NCBI GenBank assembly: GCA_965209085.1
Contig: OZ242376.1
Location: 256,001 to 320,000 of the forward strand
Direction of reading: 5' to 3'
Length of the DNA stretch: 64,000 nt
Source: Nitrosopumilaceae archaeon
Lineage (GTDB): Archaea > Thermoproteota > Nitrososphaeria > Nitrososphaerales > Nitrosopumilaceae
Shown one piece after another: positions 744 through 34,466 of the stretch (position 1 is its first letter; the number at the start of each line of letters is the position of its first letter). A model generated the notes under the pieces. That model saw only the letters and a list, made by a program, of their open reading frames with translations. It ran no database searches and was not told the DNA's origin. Position numbers and translations under genes: made by a program.

Positions 744-906
744 TATTACCTGTTGTATAATGATATATTTATAATTTTTTGATTGAGGTTCTGTGAAGTT
801 ATCGGTGCATAGGCGTGAATATGGATATTCTTTGAATTGATTGTAAATATGCAAATAGGATGAATTATATAATAGACCTCATGCATAATTAACTAAAAAA
901 TCAATT

Positions 907-2106
907 TTGGCAAATCGAAAGATCTATGATCTAGTATCATGTGAGCATAGCATGTGCAAATCAGACAAACGCATGATCTCTAAACTGGAAAAGACGATCT
1001 TAAAGATGGAAAAGACGATCCTAAAGATGGAAAAGAATAGCTCCAGGCAGGAATCAGAAATTCAACACTACAAAAAGATGGCACAGAGTAGCAATGATGA
1101 CAAAAGACAACATGTCGATAAATATTTGAACAAGGGAATTGGGAATGATGTTCATCTATATGAAATGACAGGAATGAACCGTGAAGAATTTGAATGGATT
1201 CTAGAACGGTTCAAAAAAACCGTAGAAAATTCATCAGAGATTCCCCGCTTTTCAGAATATGTGGACGATCCTGGAAACACCTGTATCCTTACCGTAAAGC
1301 AAGTTTTGTTTATCGTATTGTGCCGCAAACGCAATAATCTCAAACAGGGAGCACTTGCGTTCATTGCAGACGTTGATCAGAGCACCATTAGCAGATATCT
1401 GACATTTTCTGATGAACTATTGATGGATATTCTTCCAACGGCTAAGAATATTGGTGCTGCAATACGGACAATACGTACAAGCGAGTTGTTTAAAAAATTC
1501 GTACCCGGCAGAGGCGGCGGCGAGCTATATCTTGATGCCACGTTTGTACAGGTTCAAAGACCGCAGGAGAATCAAGAAACAGTATACTATTCTGGAAAGC
1601 GCAAAAGGCACGTCTACAGCATACAGATAACCTCCAACAAAGATGGAGTGGTAAATGACATTGGCGGTCCAGAAGAGGGCTCAGTACATGACATGGAGGT
1701 ACTGCGGCGTAATCCGCCAAATTTTGGCAAATGGACCGATGGCATGAAAAACTCTGATACAAAAAAAGAGCGCCAAATTACACTCTACACCGACAAGGGA
1801 TACTTGTCCGTGGAAAAAGACTATCCTGGAATTATCTCAAAGCAGCCGTACAAAAAACCAAAGGGTAGGGGATTGACAGAGACAGAACGCGAATATAGCA
1901 AGAGGATCAGTCGTAAGCGCATAAAAGTAGAGCATGCCATAAACCGGCTCAAATGGTTTCGCAGAATGAGTGCCGTATATGATGACACAATGGATGCGTT
2001 TTATACAGAAATCCAAGTGGTTACAGGACTGACCAATCTGCACATCATGTTAAAGGATCGCAAGTATATCGAACCGTTGGAAAAAATTTGCCCTCAAATC
2101 AAGTAG
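907..2106 (+). CDS. IS5-family DDE transposase
   Basis: HTH (VDQSTISRY), YLDATF..QRP, YSGK.KRH, HDM, YTDKGY and RIKVEHAI motifs. Confidence 0.9.
   Translation: MANRKIYDLVSCEHSMCKSDKRMISKLEKTILKMEKTILKMEKNSSRQESEIQHYKKMAQSSNDDKRQHVDKYLNKGIGNDVHLYEMTGMNREEFEWILERFKKTVENSSEIPRFSEYVDDPGNTCILTVKQVLFIVLCRKRNNLKQGALAFIADVDQSTISRYLTFSDELLMDILPTAKNIGAAIRTIRTSELFKKFVPGRGGGELYLDATFVQVQRPQENQETVYYSGKRKRHVYSIQITSNKDGVVNDIGGPEEGSVHDMEVLRRNPPNFGKWTDGMKNSDTKKERQITLYTDKGYLSVEKDYPGIISKQPYKKPKGRGLTETEREYSKRISRKRIKVEHAINRLKWFRRMSAVYDDTMDAFYTEIQVVTGLTNLHIMLKDRKYIEPLEKICPQIK
986..1036 (+). repeat. 21-bp in-frame tandem repeat, about 2.4 copies (heptad MEKTILK)
   Basis: TGGAAAAGACGATCTTAAAGA / TGGAAAAGACGATCCTAAAGA / TGGAAAAGA. 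Confidence 0.9.
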
Positions 2107-2276
2107 CACATCTTTGTGCATACAGTCACGCATAATATCCTGCTTTTTGTCATGCATATGATATTTGGATTTATTTTGTTGTCTGCTTGAAGGTTTTAGG
2201 CCATATGTACTTTGATCATGACAGTGTCATAGTAGGAACCGTATGTCTTTGCAGTTGATTATGCATGAACTCTAAT

Positions 2277-3631
2277 AGACCTTATGCATAATTAACCAAA
2301 AAATCAATTTTGACAAATCGAAAGATCTATGATCTAGTATCACATTCGTACAGCATGTGTGCCCCAGACAAGCGTATAATCGCCCAGCAAACAGAGATGA
2401 TCTCCAAGCTTGAAGCAGAAATTCAACACTACAAAAAAACGATACATGATAATGAGGTCGAAAAGCAACAATCTGCCTACGAATATTTGAACCACATAAT
2501 TGATGATGACAATTATTTGTACGGGACGACTGGAATGAACCGTGAAGAGTTTGAATGGATTCAGGAACGGTTTGAAAAAGTTATCGAATATTCGCCCAAG
2601 GTCCCCCGCTTTTCAGATTATGTCGACGATCCTGGAAACACCTGTATTCTCACTGCATCTCAAATTTTGTTTGTCACACTGTGCCGCAAACGCAACAATC
2701 CTAAACAGGAATTGCTTGCGGCCATTGCAGGCGTTGATCAGAGCACCATCAGCAGATATCTGACCTTTTCTGATGAATTGTTGATGAATATTCTTCCAAC
2801 GGCTAAGAATATTGGTGCTGCAATACGGACAATACGTACAAGCGAGTTGTTTAAAAAATTCGTACCCGGCAGAGGCGGCGGCGAGCTGTATCTTGATGCC
2901 ACGTTTGTACAGGTTCAAAGACCGCAGGAAAACCAAGAGGTAGTATACTCTGGAAAGCGTAAGAGGCACGTCTACAACGTACAGATAACCTCAAACAAAG
3001 ACGGGCTGGTACTTGACATTGGCGGACCTGAAGATGGCTCAGTACATGACATGGAGGTACTGCGGCGTAATCCGCCAAATTTTGGCAAATGGACCGATGG
3101 CATGAAAAACTCTGATACAAAAAAAGAGCGCCAAATTATGCTATATACTGACAAGGGATATCTGTCCGTGGAAAAAGACTATCGGGGCATTATCTCAAAG
3201 CAGCCGTACAAAAAACCAAAGGGCAGAGGATTAACAGAGACAGAACGCGAATACAGCAAGAGAATCAGTCGTAAGCGCATAAAAGTAGAGCATGCCATAA
3301 ACTGGCTCAAATGGTTTCGCAGAATGAGTGCCGTATATGATGACACAATGGATGCGTTTTATACAGAAATCCAAGTGGTTACAGGACTGACCAATCTGCA
3401 CATCATGTTAAAGGATCGCAAGTATATCGAACCGTTGGAAAAAATTTGCCCTCAAATCAAGTAGCACATCTTTGTGCATACAGTCACGCATAATATCCTG
3501 CTTTTTGTCATGCATATGATATTTTGATTTATTTTGTTGTCTGCTTGAAGGTTTTAGGCCATGTGTACTTTGATCATGACAGCGTCATAGTCGGAACCGT
3601 ATGTCTCAGTGATTGATTATGCATAAGGCCT
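2277..3631 (+). mobile_element. IS5-like insertion sequence, copy 2, in tandem with copy 1
   Basis: TIRs AGACCTTATGCATAAT (2277-2292) and ATTATGCATAAGGCCT (3616-3631); AAT on both flanks. Confidence 0.85.
2310..3464 (+). CDS. IS5-family DDE transposase
   Basis: Same motifs as 907..2106; C-terminal two-thirds nearly identical. Confidence 0.9.
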   Translation: MTNRKIYDLVSHSYSMCAPDKRIIAQQTEMISKLEAEIQHYKKTIHDNEVEKQQSAYEYLNHIIDDDNYLYGTTGMNREEFEWIQERFEKVIEYSPKVPRFSDYVDDPGNTCILTASQILFVTLCRKRNNPKQELLAAIAGVDQSTISRYLTFSDELLMNILPTAKNIGAAIRTIRTSELFKKFVPGRGGGELYLDATFVQVQRPQENQEVVYSGKRKRHVYNVQITSNKDGLVLDIGGPEDGSVHDMEVLRRNPPNFGKWTDGMKNSDTKKERQIMLYTDKGYLSVEKDYRGIISKQPYKKPKGRGLTETEREYSKRISRKRIKVEHAINWLKWFRRMSAVYDDTMDAFYTEIQVVTGLTNLHIMLKDRKYIEPLEKICPQIK

Positions 3632-3645
3632 AATAAATGTAATAT

Positions 3646-3840
3646 GTGAATAATATGGGCATTATTGGTACCTATTCGGTAGTTGTGAAATGTGAAAATT
3701 GTGGTACGGGTAATAAAATTGTTATTTCTAAAGGTGTAACGATTGGGAGTAGCTTGAAGAATATCCGTGATGTATGTGGTAATTGTGGCTGTCCGTTAAA
3801 ACGTAGAGCAAATTATACCGCAGATCATAAATTCGTTTAA
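3646..3840 (+). CDS. Small zinc-ribbon protein
   Basis: Two CxxC pairs (CENC, CGNC) in 64 aa. Confidence 0.55.
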   Translation: MNNMGIIGTYSVVVKCENCGTGNKIVISKGVTIGSSLKNIRDVCGNCGCPLKRRANYTADHKFV

Positions 3841-4085
3841 ATTCTGAATGATGTTCATAAATGATTCATGTTTTTTACATCTATAACTTCGTCATATTAT
3901 GATATTATTGATGGTTTTTTTAAACGAATTAATGCTTTGGGGTATAACAATAAAGTGATCTTTTTTTCACACCAACCGATAAACTTTTAGATCGCTAAAA
4001 TACATTAGACTTCATGCATAATGGGTCAAATTCACAATTTTTACGAATAAAAATGACCGATTTGAACGATTATGCATAACCATAT

Positions 4086-5208
4086 GTGAAGAGAGCTTCT
4101 AAGACCACAGATGGTTGTAAGAATGTCAAACGATCCGTATCACCGAAACGTAAATCATCTAAAAAAGATCCAAATGCAAACAAACAGATTACCACATATT
4201 CTGGGAAGAATATGTTTGTTGGAATGGACGTTCACAAGAAATTTCTTCAAGTTGCAATGATGGATAAAAAAGCCAAAGTGATTTTTAATGAGAGGATTGA
4301 AAATGAAAACAAGTCCATCAGTCGATTCTTCAGATCAAGCGTACCTGAAAATGCAAAAATCGTAATGGAATCTTCATCCGTATGGTACGGTCTATATCGA
4401 TACATGACAGATAAAATGGGTTATAATGTCGTATTGTCAAATCCATGGGCGACAAAAATCATCGCCGCATCCAAGAAAAAGACCGACAAGAGGGATGCTG
4501 TAACACTTGCAGACCTATTACGGTGCGGATACATATCCCTCTGTCATGTCTCAAACAAGGACATAGTGGAACAACGGCAACTTGTACGATATCGCGACAG
4601 CCTTGTCAAGACAAGGACAACTCTAAAAAACAAAATACATGGAATTTTGTTACAGGGAGGGATAAAGATCTTTGGAGCAACATTTACGCTTACATACAAT
4701 AGAAAACTGCGTTCTCTAAAGGATTATCGTATAAACGGATATTTGGATTCTATTGGATTCGTTAATACAAAAATTGCAGACTCAAACATAAAAGTACACA
4801 ACGCATCCTGTTCAAACAAGGATGCAATGTTGCTCAAGACAATACCTGGCATAGGTGATTTTATTTCATTGATACTGGCAGCAGAGATTGATGGAGTTGA
4901 GAGATTTTCTGAACCAAAACAACTCAAATCATATGCAGGTCTTGCCCCATCGGTTCGCAATTCAGCAGATGTGGTCCATCACGGACATATAACAAAAAGA
5001 GGAAAGTCAGATGATGCGATGGGCACTGGTGGAAGCTGTTACCACACATGTCCGATTTGCATCAGAGAGTAACATTTCTGAATTTTACCGGCGTCTTGCA
5101 AAAAAGAGAGGATCATCCAAGGCCAAAGTTGCAGCAGCGGCCAAGATGCTGGATATCATATTTCGTATGCTAAAGGATAGGAGTGAATTTGAAATACATC
5201 ATAGTTAA
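4086..5208 (+). pseudogene. IS110 DEDD recombinase/transposase, frameshifted near 5003
   Basis: FVGMDVHK, VMESS, KKKTDKRDA, TIPGIG, SYAGLAPSVRNS and ITKRG motifs; the C-terminus (MRWALVEA...KAKVAAAAKML) continues in another frame (5011..5208). Confidence 0.9.
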
Positions 5209-5216
5209 AGCAACAA

Positions 5217-5330
5217 ACCGCGGGTTAGACTTTGGGGATGTTACCCCGGCTGCATAACTGCGGTAAGCTTTAACATGTAGATGAAGATGGTTGTGGGATT
5301 AAATCCCGAATGGATAGATGTCTTTTATCT
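5217..5330 (+). ncRNA. Putative bridge RNA/seekRNA (target-binding and donor-binding loops)
   Basis: Two stem-enclosed internal loops, each with a central hairpin. Guides TAGACTTT (5226-5233) and TGCATA (5251-5256) match the IS5/MITE TIR; ATGGTT (5287-5292) and ATGGATA (5310-5316) match the element's circle junction. Transcript ends unknown. Confidence 0.75.
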
Positions 5331-5525
5331 TTTGGTTGGAACCAGACACATAGCGAAAGCCATACCGCATGACACAAAAAAGCAAGAAACCTTTAAAAAG
5401 TATTCACATGGATAACCTCTATTGCCATTATTGTCTAATAATCACTAAAATTGACAAATTATGCAAGGTTGTACACCATACCACGCATGAGAATGTTTAT
5501 GGACACTATATGATGGATAATAACC

Positions 5526-7664
5526 GTGAAGGTTGCAAAACTACATTTAGAAAAAGAGGCTCTGGAATTTCTTGACAAACAAGGATACAAGGATCTCTTC
5601 CCGCCCCAAAAAACTGCCATAGATGCCGGATTATTAAAAGAAAAAAGCATACTGGTTTCAGCTCCCACTGCGGGAGGCAAAACACTCATTGCCATGATGG
5701 CAATACTCTCGTTTCTCTCAAAAGGCAAGGGCAAGGCCGTATATCTTAGCCCTCTAAAGGCGCTGGCAGCGGAAAAATATTCTGAATTTAAAAAACTCGA
5801 ACAAATTAAAATCGGCGGAAGAAAGCCCCGTGTGGCAGTATCTGTTGGAAATTTGGGCAATTCGAAAAACAATCCTGCAAACAGCGACGTTTTGATTTTA
5901 ACAAACGAAAGAATGGACTATATGATAAGGCGCGGTTCGGACTGGGTTGATGACATAGGTCTGATCATAGCTGATGAGGTGCATCTTGTCGGCGATGATG
6001 ACAGGGGACCGGCACTGGAGATGATTTTAACGCGAATGAAAAGAAAAGATCCGACACCGCAGATAATCGGCCTTAGCGCAACGGTGACAAACTCTGAAGA
6101 GATTGCAGACTGGCTGGGTGCTGATCTTGCAGAAAGCGATTGGCGTCCGGTTCCGCTTACAGAAGGCGTGTGCGACGGCAGAACGGTTGAAATGAACGAT
6201 GGTAAAATATACGAGCCTAAATTTACGGTCAGGGGAATTCCCGTGGATCTTGGTATTGAATGCGTGGTAGAGGGCGGACAGTCGCTCCTGTTTGCAGAAA
6301 CGCGCGTGCGTGCAGCATCACTGGCAACCAAGGCTGCTGATGCGATATCAGAGCTGCTCACAAGCAATGAGCGCAAATCGCTTGCAGCAATATCCAAAAA
6401 AATTACCGGCTCTAGTGAGCGCACCGAACTGGTCCAAAAACTGGCAGATCTGGTGAAAAAAGGCGTGGCGTTTCATCACGCAGGATTGGATCAGAAATGT
6501 CGCGAGGCAGTGGAGGATGGATACCGCAAAGGCGCCATAAAGCTGCTCTCATCAACTCCAACGCTTGCAGCAGGCGTAAATCTTCCCGCAAGGCGCGTTG
6601 TAATATCCAGCGTGATGCGTTACAACGGCAAAGTGGGCGCCAACGTTCCAATACGCGTCCTTGAATACAAACAACTGTGCGGCAGGGCCGGCCGGCCGCA
6701 ATACGACGATCACGGCGAGGCAATAATCGTGACAAGCAGGGCAGCTGAGGAGATTGCCGAACATTACATTGACGGCGAGGCTGAACCCATTGAATCGGTG
6801 ATAACCGAGGAGAATGCATTGCACAACCACGTTTTGGGACTTGTATCAACGGAGCCGGGAATACGCGGCGAGGATGTCGTGAAATTTTTTATGGACACGC
6901 TTGGCGGAATGCAGTACCAGAAAGGTGAGACAAAAAACGGCGTCTCTGAGGCGCTTGAATACCTGGAGGAAAAAGAGATGCTGGTCGGAAAGAAAAAACG
7001 GTACGCTGCAACCGAATTTGGAAAAAGAACCTCCTCACTGTACATTGATCCGCAGACTGCATGGAGGATGCGCGAGGCGATAACGAATGCGTCAAAAAAA
7101 GGATCGCATGCGCTCGGATTCTTACATGTAATAACACAGTGCCGGGAATTTTACCCGCGCATGCAGCTGCGGCAAAAAGATTACGAGCTAGCCGATGAGC
7201 TGCTTGAAAAGAAACGCTCAGAGCTGTTAGATCCCCTGGATGCATCCGAGTGCAGCAGAAGTTTGATTGCACTTGACATGTGGATATCCGAATATTCTGA
7301 ATCAAACATTGCAAGCGCCCTAAAGGCAGAATCCGGTGATGTACACCGCATGAATGAAACTGCGCGGTGGCTTGCATTCTGCATGAGGGAGCTCTCACGG
7401 CATCTTCAACGACCGGATCTTGCAGCAGAGATGGAGTCATTGGAGATGCGCATCAGGTACGGAGTAAAGACACAGCTGCTTGATTTGGTGCGCGTGAGGG
7501 GAATTGGACGCGTCCGGGCGAGAATCTTATACAAGAGGGGAATAAAGACAGTTGAGGATCTTGAAAAAATACCTCTTGCAAAACTTGCAGCAACCGACAA
7601 GATTGGCTCAAAGCTTGCAGCAAGTATAAAATCACAGACGGGCAGATTTGGACCGCGGCGCTAG
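5526..7664 (+). CDS. hel308: Hel308/Hjm (Ski2-like) SF2 DNA helicase
   Basis: APTAGGKT, DEVH, SAT, TPTLAAGVNLPA and QLCGRAGRP motifs; C-terminal HhH (GIGRVRAR). Confidence 0.93.
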   Translation: MKVAKLHLEKEALEFLDKQGYKDLFPPQKTAIDAGLLKEKSILVSAPTAGGKTLIAMMAILSFLSKGKGKAVYLSPLKALAAEKYSEFKKLEQIKIGGRKPRVAVSVGNLGNSKNNPANSDVLILTNERMDYMIRRGSDWVDDIGLIIADEVHLVGDDDRGPALEMILTRMKRKDPTPQIIGLSATVTNSEEIADWLGADLAESDWRPVPLTEGVCDGRTVEMNDGKIYEPKFTVRGIPVDLGIECVVEGGQSLLFAETRVRAASLATKAADAISELLTSNERKSLAAISKKITGSSERTELVQKLADLVKKGVAFHHAGLDQKCREAVEDGYRKGAIKLLSSTPTLAAGVNLPARRVVISSVMRYNGKVGANVPIRVLEYKQLCGRAGRPQYDDHGEAIIVTSRAAEEIAEHYIDGEAEPIESVITEENALHNHVLGLVSTEPGIRGEDVVKFFMDTLGGMQYQKGETKNGVSEALEYLEEKEMLVGKKKRYAATEFGKRTSSLYIDPQTAWRMREAITNASKKGSHALGFLHVITQCREFYPRMQLRQKDYELADELLEKKRSELLDPLDASECSRSLIALDMWISEYSESNIASALKAESGDVHRMNETARWLAFCMRELSRHLQRPDLAAEMESLEMRIRYGVKTQLLDLVRVRGIGRVRARILYKRGIKTVEDLEKIPLAKLAATDKIGSKLAASIKSQTGRFGPRR

Positions 7665-33429: not shown

Positions 33430-34466
33430 TGGATGATCCTCTCTTTTTTGCAAGACATCGGTAAAATTCAGAAATGTTACTCTCTGATGTAAATCAGACA
33501 TGAGTGATAACCGATTCCACCAGTGCCCACCACACCATCTGGCTTTCCTCTTTTTGTTATATGTCCGTGATGGACCACATCTGCTGAACTGCGAACCTAT
33601 GGGGCAAGACTCACATATGATTTGAATTGTTTTAGTTCAGAAAACCTCTCAACTCCATCAATCTCTGCTGTCAGTATCAATGAAATAAAATCACCTATGC
33701 CAGGTATTGTCTTGAGCAACATTGCATCCTTGTTTGAACAGGATGCGTTGTGTATTTATGTTTGAATCCGCAATTTTTGTATTAATAATCCAATAGAATC
33801 CAAATATCCATTTATACGATAATCCTTGAGAACGCAGTTTTTTATTGTGTGCAAGCGTAAATGTTGCTCCAAAGATCTCTATCCCTCCCTGTAACAAAAT
33901 TCCATGCATTTTGTTTTTTTTAGAATTGTTCTTGTCTTGACAAGACTGTAGCGATATCGTACAAGTTGTCGTTGTTCCATTATGTCCTTGTTTGAGACAT
34001 GACAGAGGGATATGTATCCACAACGTAATAGGTCTGCAAGTGTTATAGCATCTCTTTTGTCAGTTTTTTTCTTGGATGCGGCGATGATTTTTGTAGCCCA
34101 TGGATTTGACAATACGACATCATAACCCATTTTATCTGTTATGTATCGATATAATCCGTACCATATGGATGAAGATTCCATGACGATTTTTGCATTTTCA
34201 GGTACGCTTGATCTGAAGAATCATCAGATAGACTTGTTTTCATTTTCAATCCTCTCATTAAAAACCACTTTGGCTTTTTTATCCATCATTGCAAATTGAA
34301 GAAATTTCTTGTGGACGTCCATTCCAACAAACATATCCTTCCTAGAATATCGGGTAATCTGTTTGTTTACATTTGGATCTTTTTTAGATGATTTACGTCT
34401 CGGCAATACGGATCGTTTGACATTCTGACAACCATCTGTGGTCTTAGAAGCTCTCTTCACATATGG
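33430..34466 (-). pseudogene. Degraded, 3'-truncated second copy of the IS1111-type element
   Basis: Colinear with 4080-5118, with several frameshifts and stops; left end CCATATGTGAA intact. Confidence 0.9.

Follow-up and report, generated by a model that had tools for sequence, protein, structure and literature searches.

In the genome of a Nitrosopumilaceae archaeon (GenBank assembly GCA_965209085.1, contig OZ242376.1) we analysed a stretch of 64,000 nucleotides, positions 256,001 to 320,000, which we call the window. At window positions 4079-5412 lies an insertion sequence (IS) that encodes a frameshifted recombinase followed by a long non-coding right end, and that is inserted in an inverted repeat of a resident transposon family. 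According to the comparisons presented here, it is very probably an IS1111-type element with a two-loop guide RNA aiming at that inverted repeat. The host genome is a single contig of 1.69 Mb that carries an archaeal amoA gene (E 4.5e-119), and this fits the ammonia-oxidising archaeon proposed in an earlier reading made from the letters of the window (the sequence-only reading).

The element and its insertion site

The recombinase contains a DEDD_Tnp_IS110 domain (PF01548; Pfam E 6.4e-28 in the window copy, 5.7e-28 in an intact one) and a C-terminal Transposase_20 domain (PF02371, E 1.2e-21). It is weakly similar to the solved recombinases of ISCro4 (E 2e-8) and, over the C-terminal domain, IS621 (E 5.6e-6). 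Compared with two intact 373-aa copies elsewhere in the genome, the reading frame of the window gene is disrupted by an additional A near 5003 together with substitutions clustered at 5004-5009, and the window copy is consequently non-autonomous. Of the 34 representative homologues described below, 31 have a G-x-x-P-x-x-x-x-S-(A/G) motif, mostly as S-A and in some as S-G; it reads GLAPSVRNSA in the window element. From the stop codon to the right end there are 204 nt of non-coding DNA (5209-5412), against 7 nt between the left end and the GTG start codon. The subterminal inverted repeats measure 7 bp in the window element, 5-13 bp in most homologues and 4 bp in two. On the domains, the motif (as S-A), the downstream non-coding region, the subterminal repeats and the order of the guides, we assign the element by sequence to the IS1111 group of the IS110 family.

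A TA dinucleotide is present on both sides of the element (4077-4078 and 5413-5414). In a second resident family the left and right sides share TA alone; thus TA is the core, which the sequence-only reading had left ambiguous, and the element begins with A 4079 and ends with A 5412. The interval 4007-5423 named in that reading covers the element plus a host miniature inverted-repeat transposable element (MITE). Seven full-length copies of the window family, family 1, are found in the genome (96-100% identity), together with about 15 fragments.

The window copy is inserted in the right inverted repeat of this MITE, which is about 80 bp long (4007-4078 plus 5413-5421) and related to both nearby IS5-like copies. 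Reconstruction of the occupied site gives TAGAGGTTATGCATAA. Without an insertion, the target reads TTATGCA-TA-AGGTCTA, which is the terminal inverted repeat (TIR) of the IS5-like element (DDE_Tnp_4), present as TAGACCTTATGCA at 2276-2288, and which also ends the ~80-bp MITE family. The same MITE flanks other family-1 copies in both orientations. Family-1 insertions nearly always read ...(A/T)TATGCATA on the left, then the element from A-CCATATGTG to CACATGG-A, then TA(A/C)NNTCTA, the left flank ending in ...TTATGCATA. Genome-wide, 11 of 12 family-1 left-end motifs and 14 of 16 right-end motifs lie in the IS5-like/MITE repeat; about a quarter of these repeats are occupied and 36 sites are unoccupied. 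In other public runs, contigs that match up to 4078/4079 go on with AGTCTA... or CGGTCTA..., that is, empty repeat sites with the same breakpoint. These flanks agree with the proposal that the element is programmed against the IS5/MITE repeat, and copies in sequences unrelated to the TIR, which would have spoken against it, were not met apart from one copy in a degenerate site, taken up below. Homologues at 48-59% protein identity from other genomes of the family (L035, L040, L042, L049 and L059) are also found in ...ATGCATAA(A/G)GTCTA-type repeats, some of them at another position of the repeat, so that several lineages prey on the same transposon family.

A predicted two-loop RNA, conserved in the right end

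When 401 genomes from the class of the host were searched with the protein, 78 had recombinase homologues; one of these 78, flagged as unpublished, was left out of the later comparisons. Ends were set for 50 of 58 recombinase matches with a motif-anchored finder; an exact inverted repeat of at least 7 nt gave wrong ends or none at many loci. L049, L055, L056, L065, L069, L071, L072 and L073 were dropped without ends, L049 being read by eye. After dereplication of RNAs more than about 70% alike, 34 of the 50 elements were kept. The structure alignments hold 24 of these, the other 10 being set aside for sizeable insertions, a deletion or a 3' part that diverges.

The 3' ends of the homologues share one architecture. 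An outer stem of GUUAGGA/UCCUAAC type, with the stop codon in it, and an inner stem enclose an internal loop round a short hairpin; there follow a second closing stem (GGAU/GUCC; AGAU/GUCU in the window), a loop with its own hairpin, a GNRA-type hairpin and an A-rich tail. The sequence-only reading had folded this region by eye into two parallel modules, and their strings are indeed present. In module 1 these are the stem ACCGCGG (5217-5223)/CTGCGGT (5258-5264), the guides TAGACTTT (5226-5233) and TGCATA (5251-5256) and the hairpin GGGG-ATGTTA-CCCC (5234-5247). In module 2 they are the stem strands AGATGAAG (5279-5286) and TTTTATCT (5323-5330), the guides ATGGTT (5287-5292) and ATGGATA (5310-5316) and the hairpin GGGAT-TAA-ATCCC (5295-5307). 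A single-sequence fold reproduces module 1. As for the stem of module 2, its letters are there, while covariation backs AGAU 5279-5282/GUCU 5320-5323, which overlaps the longer AGATGAAG/TTTTATCT pairing. The stretch concerned does not align among homologues, and it may also form a pseudoknot with a CUUCAUC-like strand further on.

RNAalifold predicted 23 pairs, 15 of them with compensatory changes. When the stated structure was imposed on the alignment of 24 homologues, 92.1% of cells were paired, compared with 82.7% in shuffles, and changes on both sides were found at 15 of 24 pairs; none of 500 shuffles was as high on either measure, and slid-partner controls paired at 33-49%. Hairpin 1 aligns badly in MAFFT (69.8% paired) and was hence checked by folding each sequence: taken one by one, 33 of 34 module-1 regions form a stem, an internal loop and a hairpin. 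A covariance model built from the alignment recovers 20 copies in this genome and, of 151 genomes in the class, matches 21, which belong to 14 of 48 genera.

These 20 copies of the RNA module in the genome (G000) stand against just two intact recombinase genes, one naturally intact copy being that at G000 156315-157646, and some fragments retain the right end and the RNA alone (e.g. G000 959195, 728323 and 794851, with one common left breakpoint). In L036 and L063, two relatives from genome G304, the right end is partly tandem-duplicated: the first right end and a TA are followed by another stretch that begins with the inner stem's 3' strand (..ACTGCAG) and ends in a further right end, as though the 3'-guide DNA had been used as half a target.

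Guides change with their targets

Two stretches of each representative, the 12 nt that precede hairpin 1 and the 10 nt that precede the 3' strand of the inner stem, were matched against the element's own flanks and, as a control, against those of all other representatives. Scored as exact runs, complementarity of the 5' guide to the top strand of its own right flank averaged 6.15, compared with 3.74 for other flanks, and lay above the 95th percentile in 19 of 34 elements. Identity of the 3' guide to its own left flank, by which it would pair with the bottom strand, averaged 5.71 against 3.57 (16/34). Four controls with the wrong strand or the wrong flank each placed 1-2 of 34 above that percentile, and the 5'-guide signal holds when G:U wobble is allowed (16/34). 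The top-strand match lies 5' of the bottom-strand match. Judged from these alignments, guides match the flanks of their own element specifically. The sequence-only reading had suggested a covariance model of homologous right ends and a search for guide/target covariation; both gave what its IS1111-type guide-RNA recombinase predicts, stems with compensatory changes and guides that covary with flanks across the 34 homologues, and the Pfam domains, the RNA in the right end, the guide order and the covariation within the genome agree with it.

This covariation can be followed within the genome to a single base. Family 1 has two guide alleles that differ, by C or G, at the base equal to window position 5230. 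Allele UUAGAGUUU is carried by four copies, three of them in ATAAACTCTA and one in ATAACTCTAA. Allele UUAGACUUU is carried by nine copies, of which six are in ..GGTCTA/GGTCCA and two in AAACTCTA, while the site of the ninth, the window copy, is AACCTCTA. A one-base guide allele tracks a one-base target variant.

The second resident family, at 66% nucleotide identity to family 1, is represented at G000 666537-667870, 856431-857766, 1172106-1173441 and 730140-732620. Scaffold and donor loop are kept, and the guide CGCAGUAUAU is the exact complement, 10/10, of the right flank ATATACTGCG. This flank is the terminus of an IS630-like element of about 1.1 kb (DDE_3), with its TA in front, and family 2 occupies 4 of 6 copies of that terminus. 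The left flanks are unrelated genomic DNA ending C/G-TA, and uninterrupted sites read ...CTATACTGCGG. The recombinase open reading frames (ORFs) of the three full family-2 copies examined, out of four, are cut to 172-208 aa, and the fourth copy carries an insertion.

A number of results weigh against a guide RNA of this kind. The folded right end is no more stable than its shuffles (minimum free energy -48.3 kcal/mol, z = -0.88, 37 of 200 shuffles as good), and the single-sequence fold was not counted as support. An Rfam covariance scan of 3500-6000, with E up to 10, returned chance-level matches alone (best E 1.2-9, far under gathering scores). Since neither thermodynamics nor Rfam sets the region apart, the case for the RNA rests on comparison. 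An alignment-free test, the longest common substring between the whole 3' RNA and the flanks, gave 5.82 for the own left flank and 5.48 for others, with 1 of 34 above the 95th percentile; because of its high background it was replaced by the position-specific test. With G:U wobble allowed, the 3'-guide signal drops to 7/34, and the homologues are mutually related, so that counts among them are not independent. In family 2 the 3' guide matches the left flanks over 4-5 nt. The right flank of the window copy has two mismatches to its own guide, as the sequence-only reading had remarked, and one to the other allele, which suggests action in trans or later mutation. Two of the 16 family-1 right-end motif matches lie outside the repeat, and one full copy (G000 682082-683412) is in a degenerate site (...CAGTTATA / AGGTCCA). 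The joint of a circle junction was not seen in contigs of four public runs, which is not evidence of its absence. Finally, the 5' strand of the second, donor-binding loop matches the left terminus over mostly 3-5 nt in homologues (own 4.12, others 3.63; 2/34 above the 95th percentile), and the donor side, as read from these sequences, does not fit the textbook scheme.

Could the protein alone recognise the palindromic repeat, the 3' region being a structured 3' untranslated region or a terminator and the guide matches coincidental? The fold energy, the lack of an Rfam family and the weak alignment-free test speak for this, as do the shortness of the matches (6-10 nt) and the AT-richness of the sequences. 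Yet 34 lineages change their guides with their flanks and keep their stems, the two co-resident families join a common scaffold and donor loop to different guides and targets, the one-base allele follows its target, and the wrong-strand and wrong-flank controls are flat. We therefore regard recognition by protein alone as very improbable.

Alternatively, the loops could resemble the target because target DNA was captured into the element, through mis-set ends or past recombination with the repeat. ISs of this family have limits that are difficult to define (Siddiquee et al. 2024, PMC11187229), and the partial right-end duplications of L036 and L063 point the same way. Against capture, both matches are found within the element, 155-190 nt from its right end, on opposite strands and always on the two sides of the same internal loop, at a fixed distance from hairpin and stem; 12 left and 16 right junctions, together with empty sites, fix the ends. 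Capture, in our opinion, has very little chance of being the explanation, and we retain the guide-RNA reading.

The donor loop and an internal site at the left end

In nearly all representatives the 3' strand of loop 2 (AUGGAUA in the window) is identical over 7-8 nt to the right end plus the core, and it follows the end variants ATGGATA, ATAGATA and ATGGGTA. The 5' strand of the window element, AUGGUU, faces the left-terminal AACCAT over 6 nt, or 8 pairs including one G:T when the core is counted. The earlier proposal that both strands read the circle junction therefore stands for the 3' strand; for the 5' strand the match of the window element shrinks in most homologues, as given above.

What the 5' strand does follow is a site some 30 nt in from the left end, to which it is identical (own 6.94, others 4.74; 14/34 above the 95th percentile), controls with the complement or the other loop strand giving 2/34 each. 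Matches of at least 7 nt occur at +29 to +53 in 24 of 34 elements, 23 of those 24 at +29 to +41, and matches of 6 nt or less in 10 of 34. Site and loop strand vary together, as GGTTGT, AGCAT, GATAC, GGTAC, GGTGC and GGCAA. Across whole elements, no consistent RNA or top-strand partner complementary to the 5' strand was found, and the bottom strand of the internal site would be its simplest partner.

On the donor side, then, the 5' strand of loop 2 could pair with the bottom (template) strand of this internal site, in the first codons of the recombinase gene, either as a third contact marking the left end or as an RNA-guided brake on recombinase transcription. We offer this variant tentatively. 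The specificity of the match, its position and the joint change of the variable bases favour it. However, the internal site also falls in a conserved peptide (..S/L-D-G/D/S..) of the N-terminal extension; coding constraint may contribute to the identity and, with the conserved AUGG of the loop, could explain part of it. Moreover, the match is short in the 10 elements mentioned, and the bridge RNA and seekRNA structures in the literature, as far as their descriptions drawn on here go, include no such contact.

A candidate junction expression switch

An outward-facing TATA-like box lies 21 nt from the right end. The left terminus has a conserved ATATGTG, and from its GTG a frame without stops leads into the recombinase domain in 33 of 34 representatives, over extensions of 14-71 codons; an ATG close to where the catalytic domain begins is missing in at least 8. 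This GTG, 7 nt inside the element, is thus the likely start codon, and a promoter would not fit between it and the left end. Across the TA junction, the distance from the first T of the box to the GTG is 30 nt in 24 of the 29 representatives that match at least 6 of 8 box positions, with the centre of the box about 26-27 nt upstream. This is the usual distance from TATA box to start in archaea. We infer from this spacing that circularisation would switch on the recombinase: box and GTG would meet across the junction alone, and the mRNA would be leaderless. In the integrated element, the box would fire about 9 nt past the element, in the window towards a helicase-like gene at 5526-7664. That the lineage jointly added this circle-dependent TATA/leaderless-GTG switch and the third RNA-DNA contact, for left-end recognition or RNA-guided self-repression, is a speculative and rather unlikely combination.

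Proposed mechanism

On the element anatomy, the conservation of RNA structure, the guide/flank covariation and the site occupancy observed here, we propose the following scheme. An RNA of about 165 nt, encoded right after the recombinase gene and overlapping its stop codon, would be made and bound by the DEDD recombinase, which would act with it. Loop 1 would pick the target, its 5' strand UUAGACUUU pairing with the top strand right of the TA core and its 3' strand UGCAUAA with the bottom strand left of it. The site so specified, TTATGCA-TA-A(A/G)GTCTAA, is the TIR of the resident IS5-like transposon and MITEs. Loop 2 would hold the element's own ends, its 3' strand copying the right end and core. 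The element would excise as a circle, with the predicted junction ...CACATGGA-TA-ACCATATG... (also written ...TTCACATGGA-TA-ACCATATGTG...), and enter another copy of the repeat. The window copy, with no functional recombinase of its own, could be moved in trans by the two intact genomic copies.

Other features of the window

Coordinates are collected in Table 1. Upstream of the element, two IS5-like elements with full-length DDE_Tnp_4 ORFs (399 and 384 aa) stand head to tail with one base (2275) between them. Between the IS5-like element and the MITE, at 3646-3840, there is an ORF of 64 aa with two CxxC pairs, zinc-ribbon-like.

Table 1. Mapped features of the IS1111-type element, its predicted RNA and the transposons around it (window positions).
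Feature	Position	Strand	Details
IS5-like element copy 1	873-2274	+	DDE_Tnp_4 transposase ORF 907-2106; TIRs TAGACCTCATGCATAAT... / ...ATTATGCATGAACTCTA; Pfam run on sister copy
IS5-like element copy 2	2276-3632	+	ORF 2310-3464; DDE_Tnp_4, DDE_Tnp_1, HTH_Tnp_4; left TAGACCTTATGCATAAT, right ...ATTATGCATAAGGCCTA
Host MITE, left part	4007-4078	.	left repeat TAGACTTCATGCATAA to ...GATTATGCATA; final TA 4077-4078 is the core
IS1111-type element, family 1	4079-5412	+	1334 bp; A-CCATATGTG ... CACATGG-A; frameshifted, non-autonomous
Left subterminal inverted repeat	4084-4090	+	ATGTGAA; 5 nt from end; includes GTG 4086-4088, conserved in-frame start codon
Recombinase gene (tnp)	4086-5208	+	reads 4086-5072, then 5011-5208 in another frame
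Left-end internal site	4109-4118	+	AGATGGTTGT; identical 10/10 to loop 2 5' strand (5285-5294)
RNA module 1 (target-binding loop)	5204-5274	+	outer stem 5204-5210/5268-5274, takes in tnp stop codon; inner stem 5217-5223/5258-5264
Module 1 guides		+	5' UUAGACUUU 5225-5233; hairpin 5234-5247; 3' UGCAUAA 5251-5257
RNA module 2 (donor-binding loop)	5279-5323	+	closing stem AGAU 5279-5282 / GUCU 5320-5323; hairpin 5295-5307
Module 2 strands		+	5' AGAUGGUUGU 5285-5294; 3' with AUGGAUA 5310-5316, identical to right end and core
Conserved GC-GAAA-GC tetraloop hairpin	5353-5360	+	3' of both loops; RNAalifold pairs 171/178 and 172/177 with compensatory changes
TATA-like octamer	5392-5399	+	TTTAAAAA; outward-facing; consensus TTTATAAA
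Right subterminal inverted repeat	5403-5409	+	TTCACAT; 3 nt from end
Second TA core and remainder of MITE right repeat	5413-5421	.	TA 5413-5414; ACCTCTA
Second family-1 copy, truncated	33430-34466	-	element positions 1-1040, 93% identity; G000 289430-290466; left flank again ...CATTATGCATAA

Comparison with known systems

Our results describe a well-populated natural set of archaeal bridge RNA/seekRNA recombinases in which the guide code can be read straight from genomes, down to a single-base guide/target switch seen inside one genome. They also describe transposon-on-transposon parasitism in the small, streamlined genomes of ammonia oxidisers, and they supply mesophilic recombinases of small size (331-373 aa), and a candidate junction promoter of archaeal type, for testing. 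The mechanism itself and the targeting of other transposons' ends are already established in bacteria, and nothing here overturns the known mechanism. Zedaveinyte et al. counted 662 archaeal IS110 recombinases, and a 2026 preprint, in the part drawn on here, clusters IS110-adjacent intergenic RNAs from bacteria and archaea; our literature search, as far as the texts it drew on extend, returned no paper describing bridge RNAs or seekRNAs in Nitrososphaerota. In the plasmid collection, the closest relative of the recombinase belongs to a Halorubrum element, at 36% identity.

The closest known systems are IS1111-group elements with a 3' seekRNA or bridge RNA, such as ISEc11, ISPa11 and ISKpn4 (PMC11187229, PMC11208160). 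As described there, these share with our element the DEDD and Transposase_20 domains, the downstream non-coding region, the subterminal inverted repeats, the guide order and overlap at the crossover, a site-specific target and a short core without classical duplication. In IS1111 seekRNAs, too, the top-strand match precedes the bottom-strand match (Siddiquee et al. 2024, PMC11187229). The window element differs in its archaeal ammonia-oxidiser host and in an RNA without an Rfam family, and the archaeal elements differ in a donor loop whose 5' strand tracks a site within the left end. In this lineage S-A prevails over S-G in the motif; in the passages of Siddiquee et al. (PMC11187229) drawn on here the variants given are SG, TG and rarely TA, and S-A is not listed. 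These passages also describe, for ISEc11 and other circle-forming ISs, a junction promoter, Pjunc, that is formed when the ends abut in the circle and drives the recombinase gene. Whereas the bacterial junction promoter has -35/-10 elements, the archaeal element would use a TATA-like box that is complete within the right end, together with a start codon that lies 7 nt from the left end, as the conserved spacing and frame suggest.

Insertion into the conserved ends of other transposons has been established for IS4321/IS5075 and ISEc21, according to the published descriptions drawn on here, and our element resembles such RNA-guided ISs in using one orientation and one position. The archaeal prey is different: an IS5-like family and its MITEs in the case of family 1, and in that of family 2 the terminus of an IS630-like element with its TA duplication, both within the same small genome. 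IS621 of the IS110 group (PDB 8wt6) has a recombinase of the same fold family and a two-loop RNA, each loop reading both strands round a core dinucleotide; its core is CT instead of TA, and the order of guide strands is reversed in the archaeal element. In summary, sequence comparison indicates that the bacterial mechanism holds in a large archaeal lineage.

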